64,000 nucleotides of DNA from Bacteroidales bacterium (GTDB taxonomy: Bacteria; Bacteroidota; Bacteroidia; Bacteroidales; FEN-979), in NCBI GenBank assembly GCA_023229525.1, contig JALNZC010000013.1, positions 17,286 to 81,285 of the forward strand, in the 5' to 3' direction. The notes below the pieces were generated by a model that was given only the letters and a program-made list of their open reading frames with translations, was not told where the DNA came from and made no database searches. The position numbers were made by a program, and so were the translations under genes. This document shows, piece after piece, positions 30,615-46,405 of this stretch (positions within the stretch are counted from its first letter, which is position 1; each line of letters starts with the position of its first letter).

Positions 30615-31502
30615 CTACCGGTTATAGTTTCTTTCGGAATGACATCCCGGGGCGCATGTACCGCCGTTCTCCTGTGATACGAAATGGATGGGCATTTCCC
30701 ATTTACCGAAAGGAACCTTTTCGGCGATCAGTTGTGGGTTTAAGGCTCCGTGGACATTGTGGCAACTGATGCAGGTTCTGCTTTTACTGCCTTGGAGATG
30801 AAGATAATGCAGATTCTGCGTGCCACTCCTGAAACCCGTAGCAGTTCCGGTAGTTTTCAGCAGGAGCAAATCGCTGTTGTGGCAGGTAAAACAGACCAGG
30901 AAGTTTTCCTTGTGTGCTGAAGTATAAATCCCCTCGGGGAATGAACCATTCAGGATGAACGGGTTTGATGATCCGTGGGGCGTGTGACAGGCTGAACATC
31001 CCGGATTGGTTTTTCCACCGTGGAAATAGGTGCTGTTGATCACGTTCTTGCGGATATTCATAATGGGTTTGTTATCGGCGGTGACCGACTTGTTATGGCA
31101 GGTGAGGCAGGTTTTTGTCTCTTCGGCCAGCAGCAGTTTCTTTTCTGCTGATGCATGCGGAGAGTGGCAGTTCATGCAATTCTTCTCAGCAGTCACTGGT
31201 GGATGGGGGTGAGTGGCTTCTTGTGTAGCGGCCTGAATGTCGTCGTGGCAACTGAAGCATAGATCCGGGGTTTGTGCAGCCAGGGAGAAGCCTTTTTCTC
31301 CTTGGGAAGGGTGGGTATTACCGTTAGGCTTATGACAAATTCCGCAATTTTTTACAGCTGCTACATGTTTATACTCAGGTTCCATCAATTTTGAATGACA
31401 TTCGAGGCAATCCTGTGGATTTTTATACGGGACGGAGCTAAATACCAGGTTCAGTCTGGCCATATCAAACACAATAAAGATCATGACCAGGGAGAGTCTC
31501 AT
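30615..31502 (-). CDS. multihaem c-type cytochrome (8 CXXCH + 1 CX3CH)
   Basis: 295 aa with a hydrophobic N-terminus. Motifs are CLECH, CGICH, CFSCH, CMNCH, CLTCH, CSACH, CFTCH, CISCH plus C-terminal CAPGCH. The start overlaps the upstream barrel gene stop (ATGA at 31499-31502). Confidence 0.9.
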   Translation of the reverse strand: MRLSLVMIFIVFDMARLNLVFSSVPYKNPQDCLECHSKLMEPEYKHVAAVKNCGICHKPNGNTHPSQGEKGFSLAAQTPDLCFSCHDDIQAATQEATHPHPPVTAEKNCMNCHSPHASAEKKLLLAEETKTCLTCHNKSVTADNKPIMNIRKNVINSTYFHGGKTNPGCSACHTPHGSSNPFILNGSFPEGIYTSAHKENFLVCFTCHNSDLLLLKTTGTATGFRSGTQNLHYLHLQGSKSRTCISCHNVHGALNPQLIAEKVPFGKWEMPIHFVSQENGGTCAPGCHSERNYNR

Positions 31503-33466
31503 TTCCTGTACCAGTTAAAGTTTCTCACTATTTGAATAAATCCGCCCACATAATTGGTTTGCTCATGGAGATAATCACGCCGGAACACCTCCACGCCAAC
31601 TTTAAAGAATATCTGACGGAAAAGTGTGGTGAACTGGACACGACCGGTTAACAGGTTAAGGTCGATCTGCTGGCCTATTTGTTTACGATAACCGAATTCT
31701 ACGGAAAGAGTACTTTGATGCGCAAACTGGTATCCAACATTCCCGGTCACATCAATGAACTGCTGGCGTGTATTCTCAGCCGTCAGGTTGTAATCGCGCA
31801 TGTTCCCGCTGAGCGAAATGGTAACCTTGTATCCTAAATTTCCCTGCAGCTGTGCCCAATAACGGATAAGACGGTAGGGCACGATCGTACTCTGGTAATT
31901 CTCGAATTCCACACCGCCACTGGCAAACTTGTACTCAAGACGGCAGCCGTAAGTAGTTTGGGTGAAATAGTTCAAGGTAAGGTACTCCGCGGTTGTCAGG
32001 TTTGAATACCCCTGGTCGGCCCACTTGAAATATATCTCAAACAGGCGGTTGAAGAACGACACGCTGGCGTTGATGCATTGAAAATTGACATCATACTGAT
32101 AAGACCCCGGGAGCATGGCAACATAATCAACGTATACGCTCCCTTTATTTGGAATTTGTCCACCCGGCATACGCTGGATTTCCAGGAACGTGTTGCGCTG
32201 GATCAACACATAATCGAAATTGGGCTCATAGATGATCGTTCCGGTAACATCCTTCACAACTACCGAATTGAGATCAATATTGGCCTGGTTTAGCAAGGTC
32301 ATCTGACCGTCAGTAAGCACGTGCTCTTCGTGCAGGATAGGCTGGGGAACAGGTTCACTTGTATGTTTCTGACGTTGCCAATTATAAGTATAACCCAGCA
32401 TCAACCTGCCTTTTAAGGGGATTTTCTTCTCATAGTTTATATTGATACCCGCGATAAGGTTATTCTCTTTATAAAATGTATGACGGATCTGGTTATATTC
32501 CAGCGACAATCCCGAATTGAGGCTTTCGTACAACCGGTGACGCAGCATGGCCCGGATCGCATTCTGATTCATTTCCTGCGAATCCCTGCGGTAATCGTAA
32601 AAGTTATAACTTGTGCTTAAGCTGAAGCGTTTTGGGAGGTTCAGGTTTATGCTTTCATCTACCTGGATCCTGCGAAAAACGTCGGAGCCCCGCTGATCGA
32701 TACCGGAAATTGCTGAGATAAAGCTGTAATTGCGCTTTTTATCGAAGGAAATAGTATTGTTGAGACTCAGGTTATCGGAGATATTCCTTGATTCAGCGAT
32801 GTTTACATCATTCCTTGAATAGTCATTGTGAAAATAAATGAGTTGGCTGTTATCATAAGCAGAAAAGGATTTGTCGATCCGTGCCTGGATGGTTTGCTGT
32901 TGGGTGATGAATGAACGACCGGTAAGGATCTCAGTTTCGTACCATTTCCCCTGTTGGTAAGAGGCCTGGATGGGAAGGATCTTGTTCATCCAGATAAAAT
33001 TACCTCCAAAGTTGATGGTATTTGAGTGGATATTTGATAGGTTTTCACGACTGGTGTATACATTGTTATAGTTGAAAAAACCACTGAAGTTAATGGTCTT
33101 CTGGCGAAAGAAAGTGAGGGTGGCATCCAGTTTTTCCATAGTTCGTACCTCAGCCTGGTCGGGGATGACGAGAAAAAGATCCTTTCCGATAACCGGGTTG
33201 AATTCTCCGCCCAGGTGGAGCGAGATAAAATCAGGATGAATGAAATAACTGTCGGTGTTAAGTAGTATCCCACCATAAAACCGTGAACTTTCTTGGGTGT
33301 TGTAGATCTCGTTGGAATATCCGGCCTGGTAACGGTAATCGGCCCCAAGTTTCACAGCGCCATTTATCGAGTTGAGCGCCCAGAACCTCCGGGAAATGGA
33401 ATAATTCTGGGATAATCCCAGTGCGGGCAAAAGCAGCATTATGCAAAAAAAACGCAAGCCTTTCAT
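31499..33466 (-). CDS. large outer-membrane beta-barrel protein (candidate porin of a porin-cytochrome complex)
   Basis: 655 aa with a signal peptide (MLLLPALGLSQ) and no Cys-haem motifs. Tyr/Asn/Ser/Gly-rich with alternating amphipathic strand-like segments throughout. Sandwiched between two multihaem cytochrome genes. Confidence 0.65.
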   Translation of the reverse strand: MKGLRFFCIMLLLPALGLSQNYSISRRFWALNSINGAVKLGADYRYQAGYSNEIYNTQESSRFYGGILLNTDSYFIHPDFISLHLGGEFNPVIGKDLFLVIPDQAEVRTMEKLDATLTFFRQKTINFSGFFNYNNVYTSRENLSNIHSNTINFGGNFIWMNKILPIQASYQQGKWYETEILTGRSFITQQQTIQARIDKSFSAYDNSQLIYFHNDYSRNDVNIAESRNISDNLSLNNTISFDKKRNYSFISAISGIDQRGSDVFRRIQVDESINLNLPKRFSLSTSYNFYDYRRDSQEMNQNAIRAMLRHRLYESLNSGLSLEYNQIRHTFYKENNLIAGININYEKKIPLKGRLMLGYTYNWQRQKHTSEPVPQPILHEEHVLTDGQMTLLNQANIDLNSVVVKDVTGTIIYEPNFDYVLIQRNTFLEIQRMPGGQIPNKGSVYVDYVAMLPGSYQYDVNFQCINASVSFFNRLFEIYFKWADQGYSNLTTAEYLTLNYFTQTTYGCRLEYKFASGGVEFENYQSTIVPYRLIRYWAQLQGNLGYKVTISLSGNMRDYNLTAENTRQQFIDVTGNVGYQFAHQSTLSVEFGYRKQIGQQIDLNLLTGRVQFTTLFRQIFFKVGVEVFRRDYLHEQTNYVGGFIQIVRNFNWYRK

Positions 33467-33480
33467 CCCTTATTCCTGTT

Positions 33481-34035
33481 TCAGTTTAAAAAATACCGTT
33501 TATTCCCACCATGTGGATTATGACAAGTTGTACATGGCGATTCACCGATCTTCTCATGCTCCGGAGTTGCAAGGATACGGTCTGATTCATGGCAAGTGAA
33601 GCATAGCGCTTGTCCTGTTCGCAAAAGCAATTTTGGGTTCTCCGAATTGTGTGGGCTATGGCATTTGGTACAATTACCGGAGACCACTGGTCCATGCTCG
33701 AATTTCCCGTCATACGCATCATGACACTGATAGCAAAGACCAGGTTGAGGTTCGATCATGTTCCCAGGACGGTTGGGATCGTGACATACCCCGCATTTTT
33801 TAAGGGCAAACGGTGGATGTGCCGGGTGCTTCGATGCAGCAGTATTGGCAGCCAGTTCATTTAACAGGGCGGAATCCGATTTATTTCCGGTCTGTTTTGC
33901 AACCATTTTAACCGAATCATTCTTTTCGGGCACACCGTCGAAGAAGACAGTAAGCATCCTGTGCGAACATCCCAGTAAAAAGGAAAAAATGATCACTATC
34001 AGAGAAAGAGATATGTTTTTTTTTACCGGTGTCAT
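33481..34035 (-). CDS. pentahaem c-type cytochrome lipoprotein
   Basis: 184 aa with a lipobox (FSFLLGCS). Motifs are CGVCH, CYQCH, CTKCH, CFTCH, CTTCH. Confidence 0.9.
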   Translation of the reverse strand: MTPVKKNISLSLIVIIFSFLLGCSHRMLTVFFDGVPEKNDSVKMVAKQTGNKSDSALLNELAANTAASKHPAHPPFALKKCGVCHDPNRPGNMIEPQPGLCYQCHDAYDGKFEHGPVVSGNCTKCHSPHNSENPKLLLRTGQALCFTCHESDRILATPEHEKIGESPCTTCHNPHGGNKRYFLN

Positions 34036-34046
34036 CGTTATGTGTT

Positions 34047-35116
34047 TTATTTCGGGCTGATTGCACCGTACACATTGATCTTGTCGGGTCCGTATTGGTT
34101 GGTTACAAAGATGAGATAGTTAAGATTGTAAGCCTGATCCACATATTTATGGAAGTATTTCAGATTGTCATAATCGATGGTCACCTTTGCCGGAAGCCAC
34201 ATATCACCGGGGCCTTGATAAGGTCCGCCGAAAAAGAGCAGTACGCGACCAGTTTTATCAAAAATCTGCGTATTCTCGAAACTTGCATCCACCACATACA
34301 GGTTCTCTTTTTTATCTACGGCGATACCTTTGGGTCGTGCAAACTGGCCAAGGCCGCTCCCGTTGCTTCCCACAGATGACAAGTATTTCCCATCATGGGT
34401 ATAGGTCTTACATTAAAATCACCGATATCACTTACATAAACCTTATCGGGTGTAACATAAATGTTGGCCGGAGAATAAAGGTAACCAGGCTGACCCTGTT
34501 CGGCGTCAGGGAACGTATAGAGAAGTTCACGGGTATTCTTTTTATAAACGTTGATCCTGTTGTTTTTGATATTGGTTACCCAGATCGTATCGCCGGTCAC
34601 AAAGACATCGGTCGGCTTAAATTTATCGGTCTCGCCAAAAGCGCCTATATAGGTTCCGTCCGCTTCAAAGACAACTACTTGCATTCGAATTCCATCGGCA
34701 ACATATAGTTTTCCGGTATCGTCCACGAAACAATTGAGTGGAAGTTTGAGTTTCCCGTTGCCTATCGGTTCGAAATAGGTGAAGGTATTTTTCTCAAGGT
34801 CGATCACTTCAATGAGACCCATGCCTGTATCACAGATATAGATCTTTCCTCCATGCATAGCAATACCGTATGGTTTTTTAATCGGCTTTACCGGGGATTC
34901 GCCAAAAATGAACCGCGAAAATGCTGATTGTTTACCGGTGCTGTTCTCGGAACTGCTGAAAGAAGTCAGAAACTGGATCCTTGCTGTGTCTGGCGGGGGT
35001 GGGTAGGTAACCACTACTTTAAAGGTGGACGTTTTATGCAAACGCCTCGAGCAACCTGAAAAAAGCAGGAATAGGATTCCCGGGATCAGCAATACGGTAA
35101 GAATTTTTCTGTACAT
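34047..35116 (-). pseudogene. NHL-repeat beta-propeller lipoprotein, interrupted by a 1-nt frameshift (or assembly error)
   Basis: ORFs 34316..35116 and 34047..34382 overlap in different frames. Joined at about 34407-34411 they read ...VYVSDIGDFNV/KTYTHDGKYLSSVGSNGSGLGQFARPKGIAVD..., a continuous NHL repeat paralogous to the 40787..41794 protein. Lipobox LLFSGCS. Confidence 0.7.
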
Positions 35117-35205: not shown

Positions 35206-35835
35206 TTATTTGTTATGGCAGGTAAGGCAGAGGGCACTGGCGACATTGGTCTTCCGTAGCAGGTGCGCAATTCCGGTTCCGTTGTGTACATTGTGACAGG
35301 ATGCACATTCCAGTTTGTTATTGAACAACATGGTCTGTGAAATGGTTCCGGTACCGATTCCTGAAGGATGGGTAGTAGGATTCCACAGACCGGGGTCGGC
35401 TGCTGCCAGCGCAGCGTCGAAAACAAAGGAGATCGGGTGGTCATTCCGCAGATCAGTTCCCACATTGTTGACCGTTGTGATAAAATGAGTCCCGTTTGTT
35501 GTACCACCGAAGTTTTCGAGGGCTACGGTGCCGTCGTGGCAACTCAGACAGAGTTTCGAACTGCCGCTGGGTTGTGTAATGGTTGCTGCTCCGTTAAATG
35601 TCGGACTGGTGTATAGCTGGAAGGTTGCGGTAGTAGATCTGTGGTTCCATAGCGGAGCATCCGGAATGGTGATATCCGCATTGTGCGGTGTGTGACAGCA
35701 GATGCAAATCTGTTGGGTAGTATTCCAGGTCTGCGCTGAAAAATCGTGAGCAGAACCTACGATGGTTTGCCCTAAACCAACATTAACAAGAAAGAAAAAT
35801 GCCGGCAATGCAGTTAATAGTTTCTTGATTTTCAT
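35206..35835 (-). CDS. tetrahaem c-type cytochrome (secreted)
   Basis: 209 aa with a Sec signal (FFFLVNVGLGQ). Motifs are CICCH, CLSCH, CASCH, CLTCH. Colinear similarity to residues about 20-205 of the 559-aa cytochrome (PLWN, CLSCHDGT.AL, NDHP.SF.(Y/F)DA.LAAAD). Confidence 0.9.
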   Translation of the reverse strand: MKIKKLLTALPAFFFLVNVGLGQTIVGSAHDFSAQTWNTTQQICICCHTPHNADITIPDAPLWNHRSTTATFQLYTSPTFNGAATITQPSGSSKLCLSCHDGTVALENFGGTTNGTHFITTVNNVGTDLRNDHPISFVFDAALAAADPGLWNPTTHPSGIGTGTISQTMLFNNKLECASCHNVHNGTGIAHLLRKTNVASALCLTCHNK

Positions 35836-35936: not shown

Positions 35937-35954
35937 AGTCAAAGATTATGCCAA
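35937..35954 (-). promoter_or_regulatory. candidate sigma-54-type promoter (TTGGCAT-N5-TTTGACT, minus strand)
   Basis: The reverse complement of AGTCAAAGATTATGCCAA has GG/-12 spacing matching TGGCAC-N5-TTGC, except the -12 element reads TTGA. It lies about 100 nt upstream of the cytochrome ATG (35835). A 13/17-identical copy occurs at 41877-41894. Confidence 0.35.
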
Positions 35955-36204: not shown

Positions 36205-37584
36205 TCATAGACTGTATTTCTTCATCTTATAACGGAGGGTATCACGGGTAATCCCAAGCAATCTGGCCGCCCGGGTCTGATTTTGGCTGGTCTTTTTCAG
36301 TGCAGTGATGATGGTCTGTTTCTCAATGTCATACAATGATGTGCCTTCGGCGAAGAATCCTCCCACTTCTTCGGATGCACGTTGCAAAGGTTTCTGTTCC
36401 TCTTTAAGTTTCACCATTTCGGCAGGCAGGCTTTCAGCATGGATAATATCGCTTGTTTCAAGAATGACAGCCCGTTCGATAACATTGCGCAATTCCCGTA
36501 TATTTCCAGGCCAGTTGTACATTTCAAGAAGTTGTTTGGCCGCAGGATCGATCATCTGGATATTTTTTCTGAAGCGGGAATTGAAATATCTAAGGAAATG
36601 ATCGGAAAGTAATGGGATATCCTCCGTATGTTCACGCAGTGGCGGGATGATGATGCGGAAAACCGTAAGACGGTAATACAGATCTTCGCGAAAGGTCTTC
36701 TCTTCAATGGAACGTTTCATGTCTTTGTTGGTCGCGGCGATGATGCGGATGTCGACCGGAATATCGGCAGTACCGCTGATCCGGCGGATCACCCTGTTTT
36801 CGATTACGCCGAGAAGTTTCACCTGGGTAGCCTGGTTGATCTCCCCGATCTCATCCAGGAAAACGGTGCCTCCTTCAGCCATCTCGAACAGTCCTTTCTT
36901 AAGTTTTTTTGCATCGGTAAAAGCCCCCTGTTCATGACCGAAAAGTTCGCTCTCCAGCAGTGTTTCGGGGAGCGAGGAGCAATTGATTGTGACAAAGGGC
37001 TTACTGGCCCGGCTGCTTTCGTTGTGGATAGCGTGCGCGAAAAGGTCTTTCCCCGTGCCACTTTCACCCAGCAGCAGAATGGTGGTGGTATTGATCCGGG
37101 CTATCTTCTTCGACAACTGGATGATCTTGAGAATTTCGGGTGAGCGGCCGACAATATGGTCGAAGGTGACTTTTTCCTTGTGTTGCCGCCTGAGCAACTG
37201 AACCTCGTTGTTGACGCTGATCTTCTCCCGGATTATGTCTATAATAGCATAGATTTCCTTGAAGGAAAAGGGTTTGTTTATATATTCCTGGGCCCCGAGT
37301 TTCATTGCCTTGACCGCGGTATCGATCGAACCGTAAGCAGTCATAAAAACAATGTTGGTATCCTCGTGCATGGCCCGGATTCGTGTGATCACCTCCAGCC
37401 CCTGGATACCAGGGAGTTTATTGTCGACAAAGGTAATGTCGGGAAACTGTGATTCAAAGAGCTGCAGCCCCTCTTCCCCGCTCTCGGCGGTAAACACGGA
37501 ATATCCCTGCGCCTTCAATTTTTTTTCAAATGACCAGCGAATCAGCTGTTCATCATCGATCACCAATATTTTCAAAGTTTGCAT
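36205..37584 (-). CDS. sigma-54-dependent response regulator (NtrC family: REC-AAA+-Fis HTH)
   Basis: Receiver (ILVIDDE ... DNKLPGIQG), AAA+ Walker A GESGTGKDL, GAFTGA-type loop (GAFTDA) and a C-terminal HTH (RAARLLGITRDTLRYKMKKY). Confidence 0.95.
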   Translation of the reverse strand: MQTLKILVIDDEQLIRWSFEKKLKAQGYSVFTAESGEEGLQLFESQFPDITFVDNKLPGIQGLEVITRIRAMHEDTNIVFMTAYGSIDTAVKAMKLGAQEYINKPFSFKEIYAIIDIIREKISVNNEVQLLRRQHKEKVTFDHIVGRSPEILKIIQLSKKIARINTTTILLLGESGTGKDLFAHAIHNESSRASKPFVTINCSSLPETLLESELFGHEQGAFTDAKKLKKGLFEMAEGGTVFLDEIGEINQATQVKLLGVIENRVIRRISGTADIPVDIRIIAATNKDMKRSIEEKTFREDLYYRLTVFRIIIPPLREHTEDIPLLSDHFLRYFNSRFRKNIQMIDPAAKQLLEMYNWPGNIRELRNVIERAVILETSDIIHAESLPAEMVKLKEEQKPLQRASEEVGGFFAEGTSLYDIEKQTIITALKKTSQNQTRAARLLGITRDTLRYKMKKYSL

Positions 37585-37620: not shown

Positions 37621-39075
37621 CTAATTTACCGGAAGAGAAATATAGAATGTGCAGCCTTTGTCAGGATTGTTCTCAACCCTGATCTCCCCCTGGTGCATAT
37701 CAATGATCTCCTTGACAATGGCCAATCCAAGACCCGTTCCCTGGGTCCGGGTGGTGTAAAAGGGTTTGAAGATATCCGGCAGTTTGTCCTCAGGAATACC
37801 GATACCGGTATCCCTGACCGCGATTTGTACCTTTTTCCCGGCAGCCGACCAGGAGGTCTCATAAGTGATGGTGCCACGTACATCCGATGCCTGCACTGCA
37901 TTCAAACCCAGGTTCAGCAGCACATTCTCCACCTGTTCCGGGTCGAAATAAAAGAGCGGTATATCTTTGCCCAATTCCACCTTGAAATTAATCTTTTTAT
38001 TGATAGCCTGATTCTCAAGAAAAAAAACAACCGATTTAATAATTTCATTGATGTCGGCTTCCTGTGGATTAAGATCCTTCGAGCGGGAGTAGTTGAGGAG
38101 GTTTGAAACTGCTTTATTCACGCGGTTTGCCTGTCGCTGGATCTCCTCAAGTACCGGTTTATTTTCGGTATCCTTGGTTTCCTCAATAATAATTTCAATG
38201 GCATTCGCTATTCCGGTGATCGGGTTGCGGATTTCGTGGGCCAGCCGGGCCGACATCTCCCCGATAGTGGCCAGTTTCTGTGAAGTCCTGATCTCCTGTT
38301 GATGGTATTTCTGAAGCTCATTCTGTGTCTGCTGGAAATGTCCCACCATTTCGTTGAAACTTTTTCCCAACCGGCCCAATTCGGTTGACTTCGGGATAGT
38401 AAGTCGTTCGTTGAGGTTCCCCTGGTTAATGACATTGATGGCCTTTTGGAACTCAGAAAGCGACTTCCTGACGATCTTGTAATGGAGGGTTAAAACAAAC
38501 CCGAGAACAAGTAAGATCAGGATCACCGTGAAGATAAAGCTGAACTGACGGGTGAAAGCAATGGTGTCGCCCGGGGAGTGCATGGCGAAATCGATTCCGA
38601 TATACCCCAGGATGGGTTTGGTAGATGCATGACAATTATAGCAGGTCGGACTGTTTTTCAGGCGGATGATAGCCCGGGAAAAAGGAACGTTTGCATCCTG
38701 GAATGTCGTCAGGGTGATGTCGTTAGGTAAGGACGCAAGCTTCCGAAGGTTAATGGTATCGAATTCATTCGGATTGAATTGGGAAGGGTATAGCACTTTC
38801 CCATCGGCATCAATTAAATAAGAATGAATAACCTGCCCGTTCTTGTCAAGCTGACGCAGACTTGGTTTGATGATCCGGCCGTCATGCACGGCTACGATCT
38901 GGCCCTTCATCAGAGTGAGTACCGACAAAATATCCTCTTTTGCATTCTCGTAGATCTTTTTGCTGAGGTAATAATTATAGATGTAAAAAGAGAAGAAGGA
39001 CATTACCGTAATGACCACGATGATGGTTGTTACAATTTTAAACCGGAAGGAGGTAAAATTAATTTCTATTTTCAT
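37621..39075 (-). CDS. sensor histidine kinase with a periplasmic domain carrying a c-type haem-binding motif
   Basis: TM1 (IVTTIIVVITVMSFFSFYIY), an extracytoplasmic domain of about 150 aa containing SPTCYNCHAS, TM2 (FSFIFTVILILLVLGFVLTL), HAMP, H-box LAHEIRNPITG and G-box GTGLGLAIV. Confidence 0.9.
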   Translation of the reverse strand: MKIEINFTSFRFKIVTTIIVVITVMSFFSFYIYNYYLSKKIYENAKEDILSVLTLMKGQIVAVHDGRIIKPSLRQLDKNGQVIHSYLIDADGKVLYPSQFNPNEFDTINLRKLASLPNDITLTTFQDANVPFSRAIIRLKNSPTCYNCHASTKPILGYIGIDFAMHSPGDTIAFTRQFSFIFTVILILLVLGFVLTLHYKIVRKSLSEFQKAINVINQGNLNERLTIPKSTELGRLGKSFNEMVGHFQQTQNELQKYHQQEIRTSQKLATIGEMSARLAHEIRNPITGIANAIEIIIEETKDTENKPVLEEIQRQANRVNKAVSNLLNYSRSKDLNPQEADINEIIKSVVFFLENQAINKKINFKVELGKDIPLFYFDPEQVENVLLNLGLNAVQASDVRGTITYETSWSAAGKKVQIAVRDTGIGIPEDKLPDIFKPFYTTRTQGTGLGLAIVKEIIDMHQGEIRVENNPDKGCTFYISLPVN

Positions 39076-39107: not shown

Positions 39108-40787
39108 TCAGTAAGTTTCAGGGTTATGATTTTCCCCATGGCATACAAGCCGGCAGCTGCCATGACGGACCCCGGTATCTGTGAACTGGATGATCCCTCC
39201 GGAAGGACTTACCACAGCGGTATTAAAATTAACGAGGTTGGAGTTGTTCGTTGTCGTGCCGGGACTGCCTATACCATGTGCATCATGGCAGACATTGCAG
39301 GGTGTGCGCTCTTCTACGATATGTAAACGATGTCTCGGGAAGCTATTGATATTGTTGATAATGTTGTTCCGGTTATGACAGGTGTAGCAAAGAGCATAGG
39401 CAGCGGCCGATTCCGTGGTATTATCGGCTGTAAGGTACTGTGCTTTCATGATATGTGGATAGATCGATCCGTGGGGGCCGGCCGGAGAACCGGTACCATC
39501 ACTGGCGTGACAGGCGGTACAGTAAATTACAGTGGAGGCCGTATTGGGTGCGATCAGATTCCCTGTGATCTCCGTATTGTTCCGTGGTCCGACCACCGGA
39601 TGGAACGAGGGGTTAGTCGTGGCAAATTCAAGACGTACATTGTTTTGTACGATAACGCGGGGAGAGGCCGGTGGGGCCATCCCTGGAGTATTGGTATGAC
39701 AACGGTAACAGATCTGGTACTCGTAAACAGCCGGGTTTACCTGACTCCCATTCTGGTCGATCCCTTTTACACCGGTGATAAAGCCATTCACGTTGGGCGC
39801 CACAGCCGTGGTATTGTTGGCCTGGTGGGCATTATGACAGTCGGTGCACTCTACATGGTTTGTGCTCACCAGCGCATTCTCAACAGGGTCGTGAATCCCT
39901 TGGTAGCCATATACATTGTGCTTGTAGGTTTTTGCAGCTTGAGCCTGGATGTTCTTAACTGCCACGTTTCCATTATGGCAATCGAGGCAGTTATTTTCCT
40001 CGGGAAGCCAATCCATCAAACGGAGTTTCCCGGCGGCGGAATGGGGATTATGACAGTTTTCGCACCCATTATCGGCAACTGTAGTATACGGGCTATGGAA
40101 CCAGGGATTGGGGGCGACGCCATTCCAGGTGCTGGTTGAGTTACGGTGGCTTGCAGTAACCCAATTTGCAGGTGTATGGCAAACAAGACAAAGGTTCGAT
40201 GCCTGTGTAGTAGCCACGAGAAAAGCTGAATAGATATTCTTGTGTGGATCATGACAGGAGGTACACTGGAGTTTACCGTTCTCCAACTTTACAGGACCGG
40301 TGAGGGTAGCCGGATTCACCAGTTGTCCGTCGGCGGCTGCGAGTGTAGCATCATAGATAAACGAGAGCGGGTGGTCGTTGGAGATATCCTTGGTGAGGTT
40401 GCTCACCCCAGTAGGCATTGTCGTAACGCCGCCAGCCATGATAATCGGCGTTGTACGGCTGATGATGCTTCCAAGGGCAATGGTACCATCGTGACAGGAG
40501 AGACAGAGGATCGATGCCCCGTCGGGTTGTCCGAGAATAGCCTGTGTAGTGGAACTGGCATAAAGGGTATAGGTTAGTCCCGGGTCAGACCGGTTCCACA
40601 GGGGGTGATCCGGCCGTGAATTATGAGGTGCATGGCAAAAAATGCATATTTCGGATTCTGTAGTTGCTTTGATGGCGCCGGGTCCACTTACCGACAGGTT
40701 ATGCTTTGTGGATACTATGGTTTGTGAATAAACAGCCAGCGGTATCCAGAACAACTGCAGCAGGCTGATCTTCAGTAGTCTAATCAT
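39108..40787 (-). CDS. multihaem c-type cytochrome (11 CXXCH + 1 CX3CH)
   Basis: 559 aa with a Sec signal. Motifs are CIFCH, CLSCH, CTSCH, CLVCH, CENCH, CLDCH, CTDCH, CYRCH, CTACH, CYTCH, CNVCH plus C-terminal CRLVCH. The start overlaps the upstream NHL gene stop (TAATG). Confidence 0.9.
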   Translation of the reverse strand: MIRLLKISLLQLFWIPLAVYSQTIVSTKHNLSVSGPGAIKATTESEICIFCHAPHNSRPDHPLWNRSDPGLTYTLYASSTTQAILGQPDGASILCLSCHDGTIALGSIISRTTPIIMAGGVTTMPTGVSNLTKDISNDHPLSFIYDATLAAADGQLVNPATLTGPVKLENGKLQCTSCHDPHKNIYSAFLVATTQASNLCLVCHTPANWVTASHRNSTSTWNGVAPNPWFHSPYTTVADNGCENCHNPHSAAGKLRLMDWLPEENNCLDCHNGNVAVKNIQAQAAKTYKHNVYGYQGIHDPVENALVSTNHVECTDCHNAHQANNTTAVAPNVNGFITGVKGIDQNGSQVNPAVYEYQICYRCHTNTPGMAPPASPRVIVQNNVRLEFATTNPSFHPVVGPRNNTEITGNLIAPNTASTVIYCTACHASDGTGSPAGPHGSIYPHIMKAQYLTADNTTESAAAYALCYTCHNRNNIINNINSFPRHRLHIVEERTPCNVCHDAHGIGSPGTTTNNSNLVNFNTAVVSPSGGIIQFTDTGVRHGSCRLVCHGENHNPETY

Positions 40788-41794
40788 TACTTTCCTCCGT
40801 TCATGAGTTGAAATACCTGTATTCTCGAATTATAGCTATCAGCAATATAGATCTGGTCGCGATTATCAATATAAATACCAGAGGGCATCCAGAACTCCAT
40901 GTTCCCGTGTCCGCGTGTACCAAAGGTGTATAGTAACTGCCCCTGCGGGTTAAAGATCTGTACGGCGCTGAACAGGGCATCAGCAATATAAATATTGCCG
41001 TAGGAGTCAGTGGCGATCCCTTTCGGACGGGCGAAATCGCCACTGCCGTCACCAGGTTTACCGAACTGAGAGATGAATTCGCCATCAGCGGAAAAGATCT
41101 GAATGCGAAAATTCAAGGCATCCACGATATATACTTTGCCATTCCTGTCGACCCACACTGAGGTTGGATAATTGAATTCACCAGGTGCAGTGCCTCTTTT
41201 CCCGAACCGTTTCAACACTTTCCCATATTCATCCAGCACTGATACCCGGTGGGCATTGGTCTCCACCAACCAGATCCGGTGATCCGACGGCACCCAGGCT
41301 ATCCCTGTAGGCCGGTCGAAAGTGGAGTCGGTAAGCAGTGTGAGCGACTTTTTATCCGGTGTACATAAAAAAATCTTATTATAATAGGAATCGGTGAAAA
41401 GAAAACTATTTTCCTTGAAAGGTGTAATACCTACCAGGGAGGGGAAATTTTTGTACTTTTTATTTCTGAAGTGGGTTATTTCACCCACTTTGTCTTTCAC
41501 CTTGAAGATCACCCCGTTCTCCTGGTCAAGTACATACAAAGAAAGGGAATCCTTTGCAATAACACCTACCGGACGTGTTAGTTCCATTGAGTTTTTTTTA
41601 CCCAGAATGAGTTCGGCGATGCGTGTACCGAGACTGCGTTTTGGTTTTTCATTGGCAAGTGGAGGATATTGAGATATCCAGGCAATATAAGGCGAATCCT
41701 CAACCTTTCGGACAAACTCCTGCGCCCGAGCCTGAAACACGCCACAGGTATAAATTATGATAAACAGGATGATGATTATTCTGTTAGTTTGCAT
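40787..41794 (-). CDS. NHL-repeat six-bladed beta-propeller protein (secreted)
   Basis: 335 aa with a signal peptide. Repeated NHL units, e.g. GEFNYPTSVWVDRNGKVYIVDALNFRIQIF, GDFARPKGIATDSYGNIYIADALFSAVQIF, MEFWMPSGIYIDNRDQIYIADSYNSRIQVF. Confidence 0.9.
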   Translation of the reverse strand: MQTNRIIIILFIIIYTCGVFQARAQEFVRKVEDSPYIAWISQYPPLANEKPKRSLGTRIAELILGKKNSMELTRPVGVIAKDSLSLYVLDQENGVIFKVKDKVGEITHFRNKKYKNFPSLVGITPFKENSFLFTDSYYNKIFLCTPDKKSLTLLTDSTFDRPTGIAWVPSDHRIWLVETNAHRVSVLDEYGKVLKRFGKRGTAPGEFNYPTSVWVDRNGKVYIVDALNFRIQIFSADGEFISQFGKPGDGSGDFARPKGIATDSYGNIYIADALFSAVQIFNPQGQLLYTFGTRGHGNMEFWMPSGIYIDNRDQIYIADSYNSRIQVFQLMNGGK

Positions 41795-41876: not shown

Positions 41877-41894
41877 AGTCAAATTTAGTGCCAA
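41877..41894 (-). promoter_or_regulatory. candidate promoter for the NHL-cytochrome-kinase-regulator operon (TTGGCAC-N5-TTTGACT; alternatively a sigma-A -33/-7 promoter)
   Basis: The minus strand reads TTGGCACTAAATTTGACT, about 83 nt upstream of the ATG at 41794. The same TTTG is followed after 19 nt by TAATTTTG (a perfect TAnnTTTG), so a housekeeping promoter is an equally good reading. Confidence 0.35.
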
Positions 41895-41987
41895 ACAATA
41901 GAAATAGCGAAAGGAGAATACGATAAGTCCACAATACAATATTTTATTATCTTTTTCGTACTTTTATCTGGATTGAATATTAAAAAC

Positions 41988-44900
41988 ATGAAAAAAATAC
42001 CTACCCTGCTTTTCTCTTCACAGATGACCCTTTTGCTTTTGATGATCTTTGCCATAGCTATCGGGTCGGCCACTTTCATCGAGGAAAAATTTGACATAGT
42101 TACGGCTCGCCTATTGGTATACGATGCCTGGTGGTTCGAACTTGTGCTGTTGCTTCTCGCCCTCAATTTCATAGGGAATATCAGTCGATATAAGCTTTGG
42201 CGCAGAGAGAAGATATCAATCCTGTTATTTCATCTTGCGTTCATTCTCCTGATCCTCGGAGCAGGGATCACCCGTTACCTGGGTTTTGAAGGGATGATGC
42301 ATATACGGGAAGGGAATTCTTCACGGGTCATATATAGCTCCACTCCCTATCTTCAGGTGAATGCGACCGGGAAGGATTTCGATTTCTCTTTGAATAAACC
42401 CCTTCTATTCAGTGAGATGGTTCCTAACCGGTTCAGTTTTGGATTCGACACCAGGGGGAAGGGAAAGATTTCAGTTTCTTTCCATGATTATATGAAGAAT
42501 GCCGTATCACGGATCAATGAAAATGTAAGGGGAGGTACAACGATTGTTCAGATGGTCCTTGCCGCTTCGGAAGGCAGAGAAACAGTGCTCATCGAAAAAG
42601 GAGAGATTGTGGATCTGGGAAATGCTGTGATCGCGTACGAAAATAACAACCGGAAGGATGCCATCCGGCTTTCGGAAAGAAATGGGAAACTTTTTCTCTC
42701 ATCACCCTCCGGTATCGTGATGTCGTTCATGCATGGTATGGGCAGTACCAGTGATACTACTGTTAATCCACCGGTGACAGATACCATACAGGAATTTAAG
42801 GCAGGTTATATTTATAGTACTCAGGATGTCCTGCTGCTTTTCGTTAAACGATTTACCGGCGCTGAAAAAGAGTTGGTCCGTGGAAAGGCCAATGACCAGG
42901 GTTCCGAGGTGCTTTTCGTGGATGTGGCCTTTGAAGGCAAAACCCGCACTGTTCCTTTGTTCGTCGGCACAGGATACAATACGGCTGTAAAAGAACTCAA
43001 TCTGGATGGGGTTAGAATGAAACTCGCATACGGAAACAAAGAAATTACCTTACCCTTCTCCCTTCAGCTCGACGATTTCATCCTTGACCGCTATGCAGGA
43101 TCAATGAGCCCATCCTCATATGCCAGCGAGGTCACCCTCATCGATAGCGAAAGGAATCTCCGGGAAAAACGGCGGATATATATGAACCATGTGCTTGATC
43201 ACCGGGGCTACCGTTTTTTTCAGTCCTCATACGATATGGATGAAAAAGGGACGGTGCTTTCGGTGAACCACGACCGGGCAGGAACATGGGTCTCTTACGC
43301 CGGGTACATCCTGCTGGCAATCGGTTTCATCGGCACACTTTTCAACAAAAACTCCAGATTTCGCATCCTTAGCAAAGCAATCGACCGGATCCGGTCGGAA
43401 CGGAAGGCAGGGATCATGGTCACCCTTTTCTTCTTCCTTTTTGCCTCTGTTTCCTGCTTTGCCCAGCAAGAAACTGTTCAGCCATACGTCGGGGCCGATC
43501 ATGCGGAGAAATTCGGACACCTGTTGGTGCAGACTTTCGATGGACGTTTTGAACCGATTCATACCCTGGCCTACGATGTGATGCATAAAATTTCACGAAA
43601 GGACCAAATTCACACCGACAAAAAGGGCGATATGGATGCAATCCAGGTTTTCATGGATATGCTTATGGATCCCGAATACTGGAAACACCAGAAGATCATC
43701 TATGTGCGTGAAAAAGCTGTGAGGGATATCCTTGGTGTAGGCGGACAATATGCCTGTTTTTATGATTTTGTCGACCAGCAGTCGAACTACAAACTTTCCT
43801 CCTTTGCTGAAAAAGCCTTCCGCAAGAGACCTGCAGAGCAGAATGCTTTCGATAAGGAAATCATCAAAGCGGATGAACGGATCAACATATGGATGAGCGT
43901 TCAAAACGGTTCATTGCTCAAGATCTTCCCGGAGCAAAACGCGATCAATCACGGGTGGATCAGTTTTGTTGATACATTGGCCCGAGTGCCCCTCACCGGG
44001 AAATTGCGCGATATAAACAGCGATCTTCCCCTGAATCAGTTAGATTATAACAATTTAATGCGTTATTACCTTCAGGCTGTTTATGACGGCGCCCGGACGG
44101 GTGACTATACAAATGCCGACCTCGTGCTGAAGCACCTGGAAAGTACCCAGCGGGAAGGAACCCCCGAAAATCTTTTACCAACCATTTCCAAAATAAATAC
44201 AGAGATATGGTATAATAAATCGCAGATCTTTATAACACTACGGAATATTTACGGAGTACTCAGTCTGTTCCTGCTCGTGTTTGCCTTTGCGGAAAACCTT
44301 CGATCACGCAAGAGCCGTTTCGTTTCCTGGACATTAAATTTACTGACGATTGTGCTCGGTGCAGCATTTTTATACCACACCTGGGGTATGGCGCTCCGGT
44401 GGTATCTCACCGGACATGCCCCCTGGAGTAACGGTTATGAGGCATTGTTGTTGGTCGCCTGGGGAAGTCTCCTGGCCGGATTCTGTTTCATGAAATACTC
44501 CCGGATCACGCTGGCGGCCACAGCAGTACTTGCTTTTATGGTACTAATGACGGCAGGTCACAGCAGTTACGATCCACAGCTGACCAACCTTCAACCTGTG
44601 CTGAAATCCTATTGGCTGATCGTACATGTAGCGGTGATCACCGTAAGTTATGGATTCCTGGCGCTTGGTTTTTTACTTGGGCTGATCAATATGTTCATCT
44701 TTCTTTTCAAAACGAAAATCCAAGCCTTCCGCCTCGACCTGATTATCAGGGAGCTGACCCTGACCAACGAAATGACGCTGATCATCGGAATTGTGCTGGC
44801 GACCATCGGTACCTTTCTTGGCGGTGTCTGGGCCAATGAATCCTGGGGCCGGTACTGGGGCTGGGATGCCAAGGAAACATGGGCGTTGGTCATCGTGATC

Positions 44901-45155
44901 ACCTACGCGATTATCTTGCATCTTAGATTCGTTCCAGGGTTAAAGGGAAATTTTATTTTCAACATAGCGTCAGTGATTGGTTTCGGAAGTGTGATCATGA
45001 CTTTTGTCGGGGTTAATTATTATCTTTCGAAAGGACTTCACAGTTATGCTGCTGACGATAAAAAGGTGTTTCCTTTGTGGGGTTGGGGATTAATTCTGGG
45101 GATAATCTTACTCATGATTGTGGCAGGTTATAGGGAACGTTTGTCGAAGAAATGA
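41988..45155 (+). CDS. ccsBA: fused System II cytochrome c biogenesis protein CcsBA (ResB-CcsA)
   Basis: 1055 aa from the ATG at 41988 (the ORF track begins at TTG 41973). The N-terminal part is ResB-like with TMs and a large soluble domain. The C-terminal part is CcsA-like with the Trp-rich WWD motif WGRYWGWDAKETWALV. Confidence 0.9.
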   Translation: MKKIPTLLFSSQMTLLLLMIFAIAIGSATFIEEKFDIVTARLLVYDAWWFELVLLLLALNFIGNISRYKLWRREKISILLFHLAFILLILGAGITRYLGFEGMMHIREGNSSRVIYSSTPYLQVNATGKDFDFSLNKPLLFSEMVPNRFSFGFDTRGKGKISVSFHDYMKNAVSRINENVRGGTTIVQMVLAASEGRETVLIEKGEIVDLGNAVIAYENNNRKDAIRLSERNGKLFLSSPSGIVMSFMHGMGSTSDTTVNPPVTDTIQEFKAGYIYSTQDVLLLFVKRFTGAEKELVRGKANDQGSEVLFVDVAFEGKTRTVPLFVGTGYNTAVKELNLDGVRMKLAYGNKEITLPFSLQLDDFILDRYAGSMSPSSYASEVTLIDSERNLREKRRIYMNHVLDHRGYRFFQSSYDMDEKGTVLSVNHDRAGTWVSYAGYILLAIGFIGTLFNKNSRFRILSKAIDRIRSERKAGIMVTLFFFLFASVSCFAQQETVQPYVGADHAEKFGHLLVQTFDGRFEPIHTLAYDVMHKISRKDQIHTDKKGDMDAIQVFMDMLMDPEYWKHQKIIYVREKAVRDILGVGGQYACFYDFVDQQSNYKLSSFAEKAFRKRPAEQNAFDKEIIKADERINIWMSVQNGSLLKIFPEQNAINHGWISFVDTLARVPLTGKLRDINSDLPLNQLDYNNLMRYYLQAVYDGARTGDYTNADLVLKHLESTQREGTPENLLPTISKINTEIWYNKSQIFITLRNIYGVLSLFLLVFAFAENLRSRKSRFVSWTLNLLTIVLGAAFLYHTWGMALRWYLTGHAPWSNGYEALLLVAWGSLLAGFCFMKYSRITLAATAVLAFMVLMTAGHSSYDPQLTNLQPVLKSYWLIVHVAVITVSYGFLALGFLLGLINMFIFLFKTKIQAFRLDLIIRELTLTNEMTLIIGIVLATIGTFLGGVWANESWGRYWGWDAKETWALVIVITYAIILHLRFVPGLKGNFIFNIASVIGFGSVIMTFVGVNYYLSKGLHSYAADDKKVFPLWGWGLILGIILLMIVAGYRERLSKK

Positions 45156-46405
45156 TCCTCTTAAAAAAGGCGTCCCACCATTATTTCCGATCAGTATTAC
45201 TCCACCGTTATTGGGACCCCTTCATTGGTTACAAATTGGGGTGGGATGGAAGGGGAAATAAGTTGGTTGAAGATGAAAATGAAAGTAAATGGTTACGATA
45301 CATCTTCACCGAATATTCAAAGGGGACATCCTTGAAGGATATCAAATCGACACTTCATGTAAATGGAATAAAGACACGAAGGGGTAATGATCTTTGGTCG
45401 ATGGGATCGTTACAGGTGATGTTAAGGAATGACATTTATATTGGTAATCAAGTTTTTGTGGATAAAAAGTCGAAGATTGTCATTCGTAACACCATTCCCC
45501 AATTGGTATCCAATACCCTTTGGGATGAAGTTCAACATAGACGAAATTCGATATTGGTAAGAAGAAACCAAGTCAACCGGACGAAGAAATTTTATCTGTT
45601 CCGGGACTTCCTGATTTGTAAATGTGGTACCCCTATGGGTGGAAGAAGTCGGATCGACAAAGGATTAAACCATTATTACTGTCCACTTCCGGAAAGGAAA
45701 TTCAATAACAATTATAAAAATGATGTCCACTGTGATATGAAACGGGGGTTGAACATCCCGACGACCAATGGTGTCCTTTGGAATAAAATCATCGACATTC
45801 TTTCTGATACGATGGAGTTGAAAAAGACTTTGACAAAAATGACAAACATCGGAAAATTGGGGAACTCAAAAGGTTTGAAGGTGGAAAGTAAATCAATTGA
45901 AGATAAAATTCGTAAACTACTGAAAGTCAAATCTGATATAGAAAAAGGGTTAGTCGAAGTCGAAACAAAAAAAATCTTACAAAAATACCCCTCAAATGAG
46001 GTTTACCAGTCTTTACGAAAATCTCTGACCAACTCGCTCAACCAGACCAAATCAGAAATTGAAAAATTAAGAAATTCACTTCAACAGATTGGGGATCAAC
46101 AATCTTGGTTTTTGTGGATTGAAACCTTCGGAAATGACATTAGTGAAAAAAGACACCTTCCGGATCCTTTAAAAAAAATATTATTAAAACAAGTATTGGA
46201 TTGTATAACTGTGGATTATGACTGGGTGGAGAAGGTTCATCGACTAAATATTTCCTTCAAAATACCCGTATTCACGGGTGATCGGGAGGACAAATATTCA
46301 CCAAATATACTTGTGCCTTCGGAAACCCTTGGTAATCAACCCGACCAACTTGTCCCCGTTGAAACCTACTCCACCGTTACCGATTTGGCCAGGTTTCGCG
46401 GTTGA
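45152..46405 (+). pseudogene. large serine recombinase remnant lacking the N-terminal resolvase catalytic domain
   Basis: The ORF begins at the recombinase-domain boundary (...IGYKLGWDGRGNKLVEDENESKWLRYIFTEYSKGTSLKDIKSTLHVNGIKTRRGNDLWSMGSLQVMLRNDIYIGN). It has a zinc-ribbon (FLICKCGTPMGG...YYCP) and a coiled-coil tail. No catalytic Ser domain is present. The last 40 nt run antisense into the glmS 3' end. Confidence 0.65.

Follow-up and report, generated by a model that had tools for sequence, protein, structure and literature searches.

This study concerns a stretch of 64,000 nucleotides (nt) from a Bacteroidales bacterium (contig JALNZC010000013.1 of GenBank assembly GCA_023229525.1, positions 17,286 to 81,285), hereafter the window, the minus strand of which carries a run of cytochrome and NHL genes between 41.8 and 30.6 kb. 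Within this run are two cytochrome/NHL pairs. In the first, the gene for NHL-A (40787..41794, minus strand), a 335-amino acid (aa) probable lipoprotein (Cys17) with a signal peptide and a predicted NHL-repeat six-bladed β-propeller, precedes the gene for cyt12 (39108..40787, minus strand), a secreted 12-haem c-type cytochrome of 559 aa. In the second, the gene for a free tetrahaem cytochrome of 209 aa (35206..35835, minus strand), an OmcE-like protein and candidate filament subunit, precedes that for NHL-B (34047..35116, minus strand), an NHL β-propeller lipoprotein (lipobox FSGC, Cys22) affected by a 1-nt frameshift. The open reading frames (ORFs) of both pairs had been positioned exactly by a first-pass annotation, made from the sequence alone, which described the two pairs as duplicates and suggested that their conserved adjacency reflects a functional couple, with the NHL protein as a possible chaperone, assembly factor, or surface anchor.

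The same annotation had proposed that cyt12 begins with a copy of the entire tetrahaem protein, and this proposal is borne out. BLASTP aligns residues 2-204 of cyt12 colinearly with residues 3-207 of the tetrahaem protein, with 92/220 identities (42%) and an expectation value (E) of 3e-40, and all the shared strings that had been quoted are present in the two proteins: PLWN, CLSCHDGT(I/V)AL, NDHP(L/I)SF(I/V)(Y/F)DA.LAAAD, and L(Q/E)C(T/A)SCH(D/N). When cyt12 was searched with a profile of the free tetrahaem protein (120 homologues), a match of 168 bits was found at residues 8-205, and elsewhere only fragments the size of a haem motif. Because the match is confined to this region, the similarity is that of a whole domain and extends well past the CXXCH motifs, at which it might have stopped. 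This OmcE-like N-terminal tetrahaem module of cyt12 corresponds to residues ∼20-205 (40173..40730, minus strand). Its haem motifs are at C48, C95, C175, and C200, with further conserved histidines at H29, H55, H139, and H182, whereas those of the tetrahaem protein are at C44, C96, C177, and C203, with further conserved histidines at H30, H51, H133, and H184.

As judged from alignments to solved filament subunits, which run over the full length of the tetrahaem protein and of the cyt12 module, both cytochromes are homologues of OmcE. The subunit of the Geobacter sulfurreducens OmcE filament (PDB 7tfs_A) matches residues 11-205 of cyt12 (E 1.6e-33) and residues 8-209 of the tetrahaem protein, i.e. 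its full length (E 1.7e-27). Both are also matched by PDB 9yuq_N (E 3.7e-21 for the cyt12 module and 7.7e-24 for the tetrahaem protein), which belongs to a 16-chain "putative multiheme cytochrome c" whose most probable identity is the OmcE bundle recently reported from Desulfuromonas soudanensis (bioRxiv 10.1101/2025.10.22.684050). The four CXXCH motifs and four distal histidines of OmcE are found in both proteins, all aligning with the histidines of 7tfs, and the cyt12 module contains all eight OmcE haem-ligand histidines (H29, 52, 55, 99, 139, 179, 182, and 204). OmcE, cyt12, and the 209-aa protein share a histidine near the mature N terminus (the TKH of OmcE, H29, and H30, respectively), and, by analogy with His16 of OmcS, the inter-subunit histidine of OmcE would be this residue of the N-terminal arm. 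In filaments of either OmcE or OmcS, a histidine of the adjacent subunit ligates one haem (PMC9473688; PMC12954529).

The total of 12 haems previously assigned to cyt12 is correct and consists of 11 CXXCH motifs and one C-terminal CX3CH. This last site, C545RLVCH550 (39135-39152), is kept in 96% of 81 orthologues. The 9-haem cytochrome encoded at the end of the gene run likewise ends in a CX3CH motif (CAPGCH, 30639-30656), and Geobacter GSU0615 has both CATRCH and CVVGCH; ending in a CX3CH haem site seems to be a typical trait of the cytochromes in these clusters. Among 81 cyt12 sequences from ∼13 phyla, the 12 haem motifs and 16 further histidines are each at least 96% conserved. There are thus 28 conserved histidines for 12 haems, four above the number needed for bis-His ligation, enough for cyt12 to serve every one of its haems and have a ligand left over to offer. 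We also considered cyt12 as three tandem OmcE modules. In hhalign, residues 207-400 (haems 5-8) align colinearly with the whole OmcE-family profile (probability 98.4%, E 6e-15), with H214 opposite the arm histidine, as if they formed a second, degenerate module, but the comparison is not discriminating, as controls with unrelated multihaem families of the same cluster gave E values of 1e-13 and 5e-17. As these controls score as well as or better than the OmcE profile, we do not rely on the three-module arrangement, which leaves only the first module of cyt12 as securely OmcE-like.

The partner proteins of the two cytochromes are themselves paralogues. NHL-A matches PF01436 (NHL; E 2.6e-26, 90.7 bits for a cut-off of 20) and PF17170 (6-bladed β-propeller; E 1.5e-19, 70.8 bits for a cut-off of 22.9), and the two halves of NHL-B match PF01436 with 28.4 and 20.5 bits. 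These matches place both among NHL six-bladed propellers, with a blade number predicted from sequence. NHL-A and NHL-B align with 24% identity over 173 aa (E 1e-13) and 38% over 92 aa (E 5e-18), and the strings earlier said to be common to them, GDFARPKGIATD / GQFARPKGIAVD, do lie inside this alignment. In our reading, the conserved positions correspond to the repeat framework (D..N.R.Q and G..G..P). The lipobox cysteine is found in 71% of 75 NHL-A orthologues (Cys17) and 97% of 58 NHL-B orthologues (Cys22). The NHL-A and cyt12 genes, earlier described as translationally coupled, overlap by a single base in the window, shared by the stop and start codons (...AAG TAATG ATT...), and stop/start overlap is usual among related loci. 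A correction is needed for NHL-B. The gene is present, but in the window a 1-nt frameshift near 34408-34410 splits it into ORFs of 266 and 111 aa. The site reads GTAAG, and GTAAAG would restore the frame and yield a protein of 356 aa, the same length as the intact NHL-B of a relative contig (85-89% identical). The frameshift is either a sequencing/assembly error in a short run of A or a real inactivation.

The cyt12 family is large (5668 database clusters at E 1e-5 or better) and very uniform in length (∼560 aa); identities for the best 120 clusters range from 59 to 93%, and most of these sequences are full length (510-583 aa). When one genome was scanned for each species, at least 587 were found to encode cyt12. 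Cultured carriers include Lutibacter profundi, whose Lupro_12540 is 63% identical to cyt12, and Desulforhopalus sp. IMCC35007 (L044). Synteny was counted in the best 80 loci of these at least 587 genomes, and the complete module in the 39 loci flanked by 7 kb or more on each side (long-flank loci). The 80 loci belong to ∼13 phyla: Bacteroidota, Ignavibacteriota, Calditrichota, Chlorobiota, Nitrospirota, Verrucomicrobiota and relatives, Planctomycetota, Desulfobacterota, Gamma-, Beta-, and Alphaproteobacteria, Myxococcota, Acidobacteriota, Zixibacteria, and Eisenbacteria. In 73 of the 80, the gene immediately upstream of cyt12 is a same-strand NHL-A. The two genes overlap in 47 loci and are 0-30 nt apart in 19, for a median gap of -4 nt, values that are approximate because start codons were picked by alignment. 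Two of the seven loci lacking an adjacent upstream NHL-A have less than ∼250 nt of upstream DNA.

Each OmcE-type cytochrome is encoded beside its own NHL paralogue, a probable lipoprotein, and the two pairs always co-occur: NHL-A, the free OmcE-like tetrahaem gene, and NHL-B were each found in 39/39 long-flank loci. The cytochrome/NHL adjacency pointed out by the first-pass annotation is therefore conserved. Two further genes of the run, encoding a 5-haem lipoprotein and a barrel-like protein detectable by BLAST, were found in 35/39 and 29/39 of these loci, respectively. The recurrent gene orders have the tetrahaem gene immediately before NHL-B. In the first dominant order, the genes are tetrahaem, NHL-B, 5-haem, barrel, NHL-A, and cyt12, and in the second, seen in Bacteroidota, Ignavibacteriota, and Calditrichota, they are NHL-A, cyt12, tetrahaem, NHL-B, 5-haem, and barrel.

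The OmcE-type modules are ∼39% identical within a locus, whereas cyt12 N-modules are ∼52% identical across phyla. Since the identity within a locus is the lower of the two, the pairs are old and have been separately maintained. Their description as a duplicated pair is thus accurate as far as paralogy is concerned, but not if a recent local duplication was meant. On these identities, the two pairs are ancient and distinct components of one module. Geobacter OmcE is approximately equidistant from the two paralogue families according to hidden Markov model (HMM) scores, with an advantage of 18 bits for the cyt12 N-module (controls, 90-130 bits), and in a neighbour-joining tree it groups with the N-modules of the fusions. 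We tried to assign it to one paralogue clade, but in view of the size of the HMM gap relative to controls its membership is ambiguous.

In seven loci (L028, L036, L039, L045, L052, L053, and L061), there is a third NHL-type gene a few kb downstream of cyt12. These loci are from Proteobacteria, Desulfobacterota, and Victivallales, and some have further multihaem cytochrome matches nearby. The association between propellers and cytochromes may have expanded repeatedly.

Downstream of NHL-B, still on the minus strand, the window encodes three more proteins. The first is a 184-aa 5-haem lipoprotein cytochrome (33481..34035), a candidate periplasm-facing member of a conduit, which has five CXXCH motifs, exactly ten conserved histidines, and a lipobox cysteine (Cys23) kept in 91%. 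The second is a 655-aa protein (31499..33466) that has no Pfam or NCBIfam match. A signal peptide is present, Tyr and Asn make up 7% and 9% of the residues, respectively, 19 windows of 10 residues alternate strongly, and the last residue of the orthologues is aromatic (...RKF, ...RRF, ...IMW; typically ...R(K/R)F), all of which suggests that it is probably an outer-membrane β-barrel. The third is a 295-aa 9-haem cytochrome (30615..31502), with eight CXXCH motifs in addition to CAPGCH, which shares 36% identity with G. sulfurreducens GSU0615 (E 5e-54). This final cytochrome of the cluster has 433 aa in the relative contig that carries the intact NHL-B. No remnants of haem motifs were seen in the 386-nt gap downstream of the 9-haem gene, and the difference in length therefore looks like real domain variation, not truncation.

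On the other side of the run, divergent from NHL-A, the plus strand encodes a ResB-CcsA fusion (41973..45155; PF05140 ResB and PF01578 Cytochrom_C_asm), i.e. a CcsBA protein of System II cytochrome c maturation. The end of its gene overlaps by 4 nt a 417-aa ORF (45152-46405, plus strand), which contains only the "Recombinase" domain of large serine recombinases, without the resolvase catalytic domain, and may be a mobile-element remnant at the edge of the cluster.

In the window, the two pairs are separated by genes for a sensor histidine kinase (37621..39075, minus strand; HAMP, HisKA, and HATPase_c domains) and a σ54-dependent, NtrC-type response regulator (36205..37584, minus strand; Response_reg, Sigma54_activat, and HTH_8). 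The periplasmic domain of the kinase has a haem motif, CYNCH (residues 145-149, 38629-38643), and its orthologues in three other loci (L004, L006, and L009) have one at the same position (CHSCH, CYSCH, and CYGCH, respectively). These features suggest a redox- or haem-sensing two-component system paired with a σ54 activator. The insertion of these two genes between cyt12 and the tetrahaem gene is also seen in L004, L009, and a close relative contig. Two σ54-like -24/-12 elements are present on the minus strand, TGGCAC-N5-TTGA (41879-41893), ∼85 nt upstream of NHL-A, and TGGCAT-N5-TTGA (35939-35953), ∼104 nt upstream of the tetrahaem gene. With up to two mismatches, TGGCAC-N5-TTGC is not enriched in the window (35 found versus 49.6 expected), and the two well-placed sites have TTGA, not TTGC. 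A canonical TGGCAC-N5-TTGC was found upstream of the tetrahaem gene in only 4/60 loci (L024, L058, L062, and L077), at a distance of 113-141 nt, and in these four it precedes no other gene of the module.

The closest known system is the omcE cluster, which in its minimal form in Desulfuromonadia consists of genes for two multihaem cytochromes, two β-propeller lipoproteins, OmcE, and a large β-barrel, beside resB/ccsB (bioRxiv 10.1101/2025.10.22.684050). The window contains the same kinds of genes, i.e. an OmcE-like gene, propeller lipoproteins, a barrel-like gene, and multihaem cytochromes beside CcsBA. For comparison, we used the omcE loci of G. sulfurreducens (L081) and of a Desulfuromonadales metagenome-assembled genome (L083), in which the order is purHDE, ppcA, resB, ccsA, GSU0615, GSU0616, GSU0617, omcE, a gene for a ∼750-aa protein without a family match, and glycosyltransferase genes. 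GSU0615 has 11 haem motifs and GSU0616 has eight, whereas GSU0617 is an NHL lipoprotein nearer to NHL-A (162 bits) than to NHL-B (93 bits). Like the window, the Geobacter cluster (GSU0615-GSU0619) has an NHL lipoprotein gene next to its OmcE-type gene, here one of the NHL-A type directly before omcE, as does the Desulfuromonadales genome, together with the same four CXXCH motifs and four distal histidines, a large barrel-like gene, multihaem cytochromes, and flanking resB/ccsA. Unlike the window, the two loci have one OmcE and one detectable NHL gene, and glycosylation genes in place of the kinase/regulator pair. By gene content, the window has an OmcE cluster of a variant type that differs from the one in Geobacter. 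GSU0617 is intact in sample DRR462664 (L081:8338-9423, 361 aa), but in the G. sulfurreducens assembly from its sister sample, Logan DRR462663 (L082:8340-9423), it is in two fragments of 148 and 143 aa, which may be a natural or laboratory disruption.

Two other systems combine extracellular cytochromes with propellers. OmcS, encoded beside the NHL-repeat protein GSU2505 in the osc cluster of G. sulfurreducens, is also a polymerising cytochrome with inter-subunit His ligation (PMC9070056; PMC9473688), and the NHL protein, which we compared by its description, has been proposed as a requirement for the assembly or expression of OmcS (PMC9070056). OmcS differs in being hexahaem, and is described as having no sequence similarity to OmcE (PMC12954529). 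In Desulfovibrio ferrophilus IS5, genes DFE_0448-0451 and DFE_0461-0465, the "DFE" markers of FeGenie, encode multihaem cytochromes interleaved with six-bladed NHL (lipo)proteins (PMC5815863), and this cluster is widely conserved in sediment bacteria (PMC5815863, PMC8322314, PMC9769857). As far as gene order and published descriptions go (PMC8322314, PMC9769857), the succession of DFE_0463 (NHL), 0464 (cytochrome), and 0465 (secreted cytochrome) parallels that of NHL-A, cyt12, and the tetrahaem gene in Bacteroidota, Ignavibacteriota, and Calditrichota. Unlike the window, the DFE cluster has no barrel gene listed.

Porin-cytochrome conduits (MtrCAB; OmaB/OmbB/OmcB) follow the same logic of a periplasmic multihaem cytochrome, an outer-membrane barrel, and an outer multihaem cytochrome; in the window, however, the outer cytochrome (cyt12) has no lipobox. 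Mtr and Pcc systems are not known to include propeller lipoproteins. There are weak Pfam matches to MtrC/MtrF domain II/IV and to DmsE/MtrA-type decahaems, far under the family cut-offs. TIGR03508 scores 52-72 bits for a cut-off of 192, PF22113 scores 45 bits on cyt12 and covers residues 356-504 only, and the barrel has no match at all, so that the proteins of the window do not fall in the porin-cytochrome family.

We favour the reading, at a probability of roughly 0.55, that the region represents one half of a module for extracellular electron transfer of the OmcE type, here in a member of the Bacteroidota, an explanation that jointly covers a conduit, a subunit, and the roles of the NHL proteins. 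The cytochromes would be exported by Sec, and their haems then attached by the adjacent CcsBA. Together, the 5-haem lipoprotein, the 655-aa barrel, and cyt12 would bridge the outer membrane in the manner of a porin-cytochrome conduit, and the 209-aa OmcE-like protein would be the polymerising or surface subunit. The N-module of cyt12, which keeps the arm histidine, would provide the conduit with a matching surface on which that subunit could dock or be nucleated. The NHL lipoproteins would each be the specific, dedicated partner of one paralogue, either holding its OmcE-type module before export/assembly or anchoring it at the outer membrane, and NHL-A would be made in a fixed ratio with cyt12 through translational coupling. 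In this lineage, expression would probably be under the control of the inserted haem-sensor kinase and σ54 regulator.

This explanation is supported by the OmcE homology of both modules with all eight histidine ligands, the agreement in composition with the minimal omcE cluster, the synteny, the NHL-A-type gene before omcE in Geobacter and Desulfuromonadales, the conserved lipobox cysteines, the surplus histidines of cyt12, and the conserved haem motif of the kinase. Several observations weigh against it. Physical contact among the module proteins is putative, and an AlphaFold2 model of cyt12 (71-sequence alignment, without haems) was unusable, with a mean predicted local distance difference test score (pLDDT) of 44 and a predicted template modelling score (pTM) of 0.34. 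There is no 12-haem OmcE fusion in the Geobacter or Desulfuromonadales loci, and homology between the 655-aa protein and the 752-aa Geobacter barrel was not detected (no match by blastp, hhalign probability of 1.7%). Because the validated Geobacter system lacks the fusion and its barrel shows no detectable relationship, the formation of filaments by the 209-aa protein is an extrapolation. A deletion of the D. ferrophilus cytochromes DFE_0464-0465, possibly related by gene order and description, had no Fe(III) oxide phenotype (PMC9769857). NHL-B is frameshifted in the window. Finally, no His or Met is invariant in 75 NHL-A or 58 NHL-B orthologues. We had considered that the NHL proteins might be temporary haem-ligand donors (donor-histidine, like the donor-strand complementation of chaperone-usher systems), but a simple donor-histidine chaperone is without sequence support since neither family has such a residue, and this candidate was discarded.

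A possible but less probable alternative is a porin-cytochrome conduit without a filament. In such a system, cyt12 would be the terminal extracellular reductase/oxidase, like OmcB and MtrC, the 209-aa protein a loosely bound or released carrier, the shared module a sign of common ancestry only, and the NHL proteins permanent structural subunits that stabilise the outer-membrane complex. The common gene order 5-haem, barrel, NHL-A, cyt12 does resemble that of periplasmic cytochrome, porin, and outer cytochrome, and Deng et al. proposed that NHL propellers stabilise an outer-membrane cytochrome complex (PMC5815863). Furthermore, DFE_0465 is enriched extracellularly and absent from biofilm cells (PMC8322314), and many carriers of the module, e.g. 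Chitinophagaceae, Saprospiraceae, and Phycisphaerae, are not known metal reducers. On the other hand, a simple conduit does not need the co-occurrence of the fusion with a free tetrahaem paralogue in every long-flank locus, and both modules keep the arm histidine and the full OmcE ligand set, which supports inter-subunit haem ligation in OmcE filaments (PMC9473688).

A more specific version of the OmcE-type module, which we put forward tentatively and consider somewhat less probable still, is that cyt12 is the terminal adaptor of OmcE-type nanowires, either as a base coupling them to the conduit or as a tip/stopper. Its N-module would join the polymer by inter-subunit His-haem ligation, its other eight haems would reach the barrel and periplasmic cytochrome, or a mineral, and the NHL lipoproteins would act as paralogue-specific "ushers". 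The omcE operons are reported to encode no OmcE-like tip candidate (bioRxiv 10.1101/2025.10.22.684050). Contrary to these, every locus examined of the present cluster type encodes a putative one.

We regard it as quite improbable that the NHL proteins are enzymes, i.e. six-bladed lyase- or lactonase-like propellers modifying the cytochromes or a substrate. They have weak Pfam matches to SGL (gluconolactonase-like) and Vgb_lyase, and partial NCBIfam matches to ScyF, a periplasmic protein with NHL repeats that belongs to a biosynthetic pathway, but these are at or under the cut-offs (29 versus 50 bits for Vgb_lyase, 146 versus 350 for ScyF). In our reading, the positions that are at least 95% conserved in 75 NHL-A orthologues are those of the repeat framework, and we see among them neither a separate group of catalytic or metal-binding residues nor any invariant His or Cys besides the lipobox cysteine. 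That the arrangement merely reflects a recent local duplication or the chance adjacency of common domains, without functional meaning, is hardly credible: NHL repeats and multihaem cytochromes are indeed common and the shared NHL string is near the generic repeat consensus, but the explanation is refuted by the identity comparison, the adjacency in 73/80 loci, with its stop/start overlap kept in ∼13 phyla, and the 39/39 co-occurrence.

The arrangement had been described as not explained by standard annotations. This is true of Pfam and NCBIfam, which have no current model for these cytochrome-cluster proteins, but not of the literature, in which OmcE homologues and NHL lipoproteins beside OmcE, OmcS, and the D. 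ferrophilus cytochromes are on record, together with a suggested assembly or stabilising role for the propellers (PMC9070056; PMC5815863; bioRxiv 10.1101/2025.10.22.684050). Three aspects are apparently new with respect to the cited cluster literature, as far as our partial coverage of it extends. The 12-haem member starts with a bona fide OmcE module. The fusion belongs to an invariant set, in which it is joined by a free OmcE paralogue and two paralogue-specific NHL lipoproteins. Finally, this set spans ∼13 phyla, most of them outside the five in which OmcE has been reported, Bacteroidota, Ignavibacteriota, Calditrichota, Planctomycetota, and Verrucomicrobiota not being among those five (bioRxiv 10.1101/2025.10.22.684050).

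Recent papers in the field themselves pose the question, still unanswered, of how cytochrome nanowires leave the cell, how they begin and end, how they are anchored, and how they receive their electrons. The module described here gives testable candidates, namely a conserved 12-haem protein with one OmcE-type unit, which is always accompanied by a free subunit, and two paralogue-specific propeller lipoproteins. Moreover, OmcE-related machinery is far more widespread than five phyla, with at least 587 species genomes in ∼13 phyla, including Bacteroidota, Ignavibacteriota, Planctomycetota, and Verrucomicrobiota, and this breadth affects how the potential for extracellular electron transfer is read from metagenomes.

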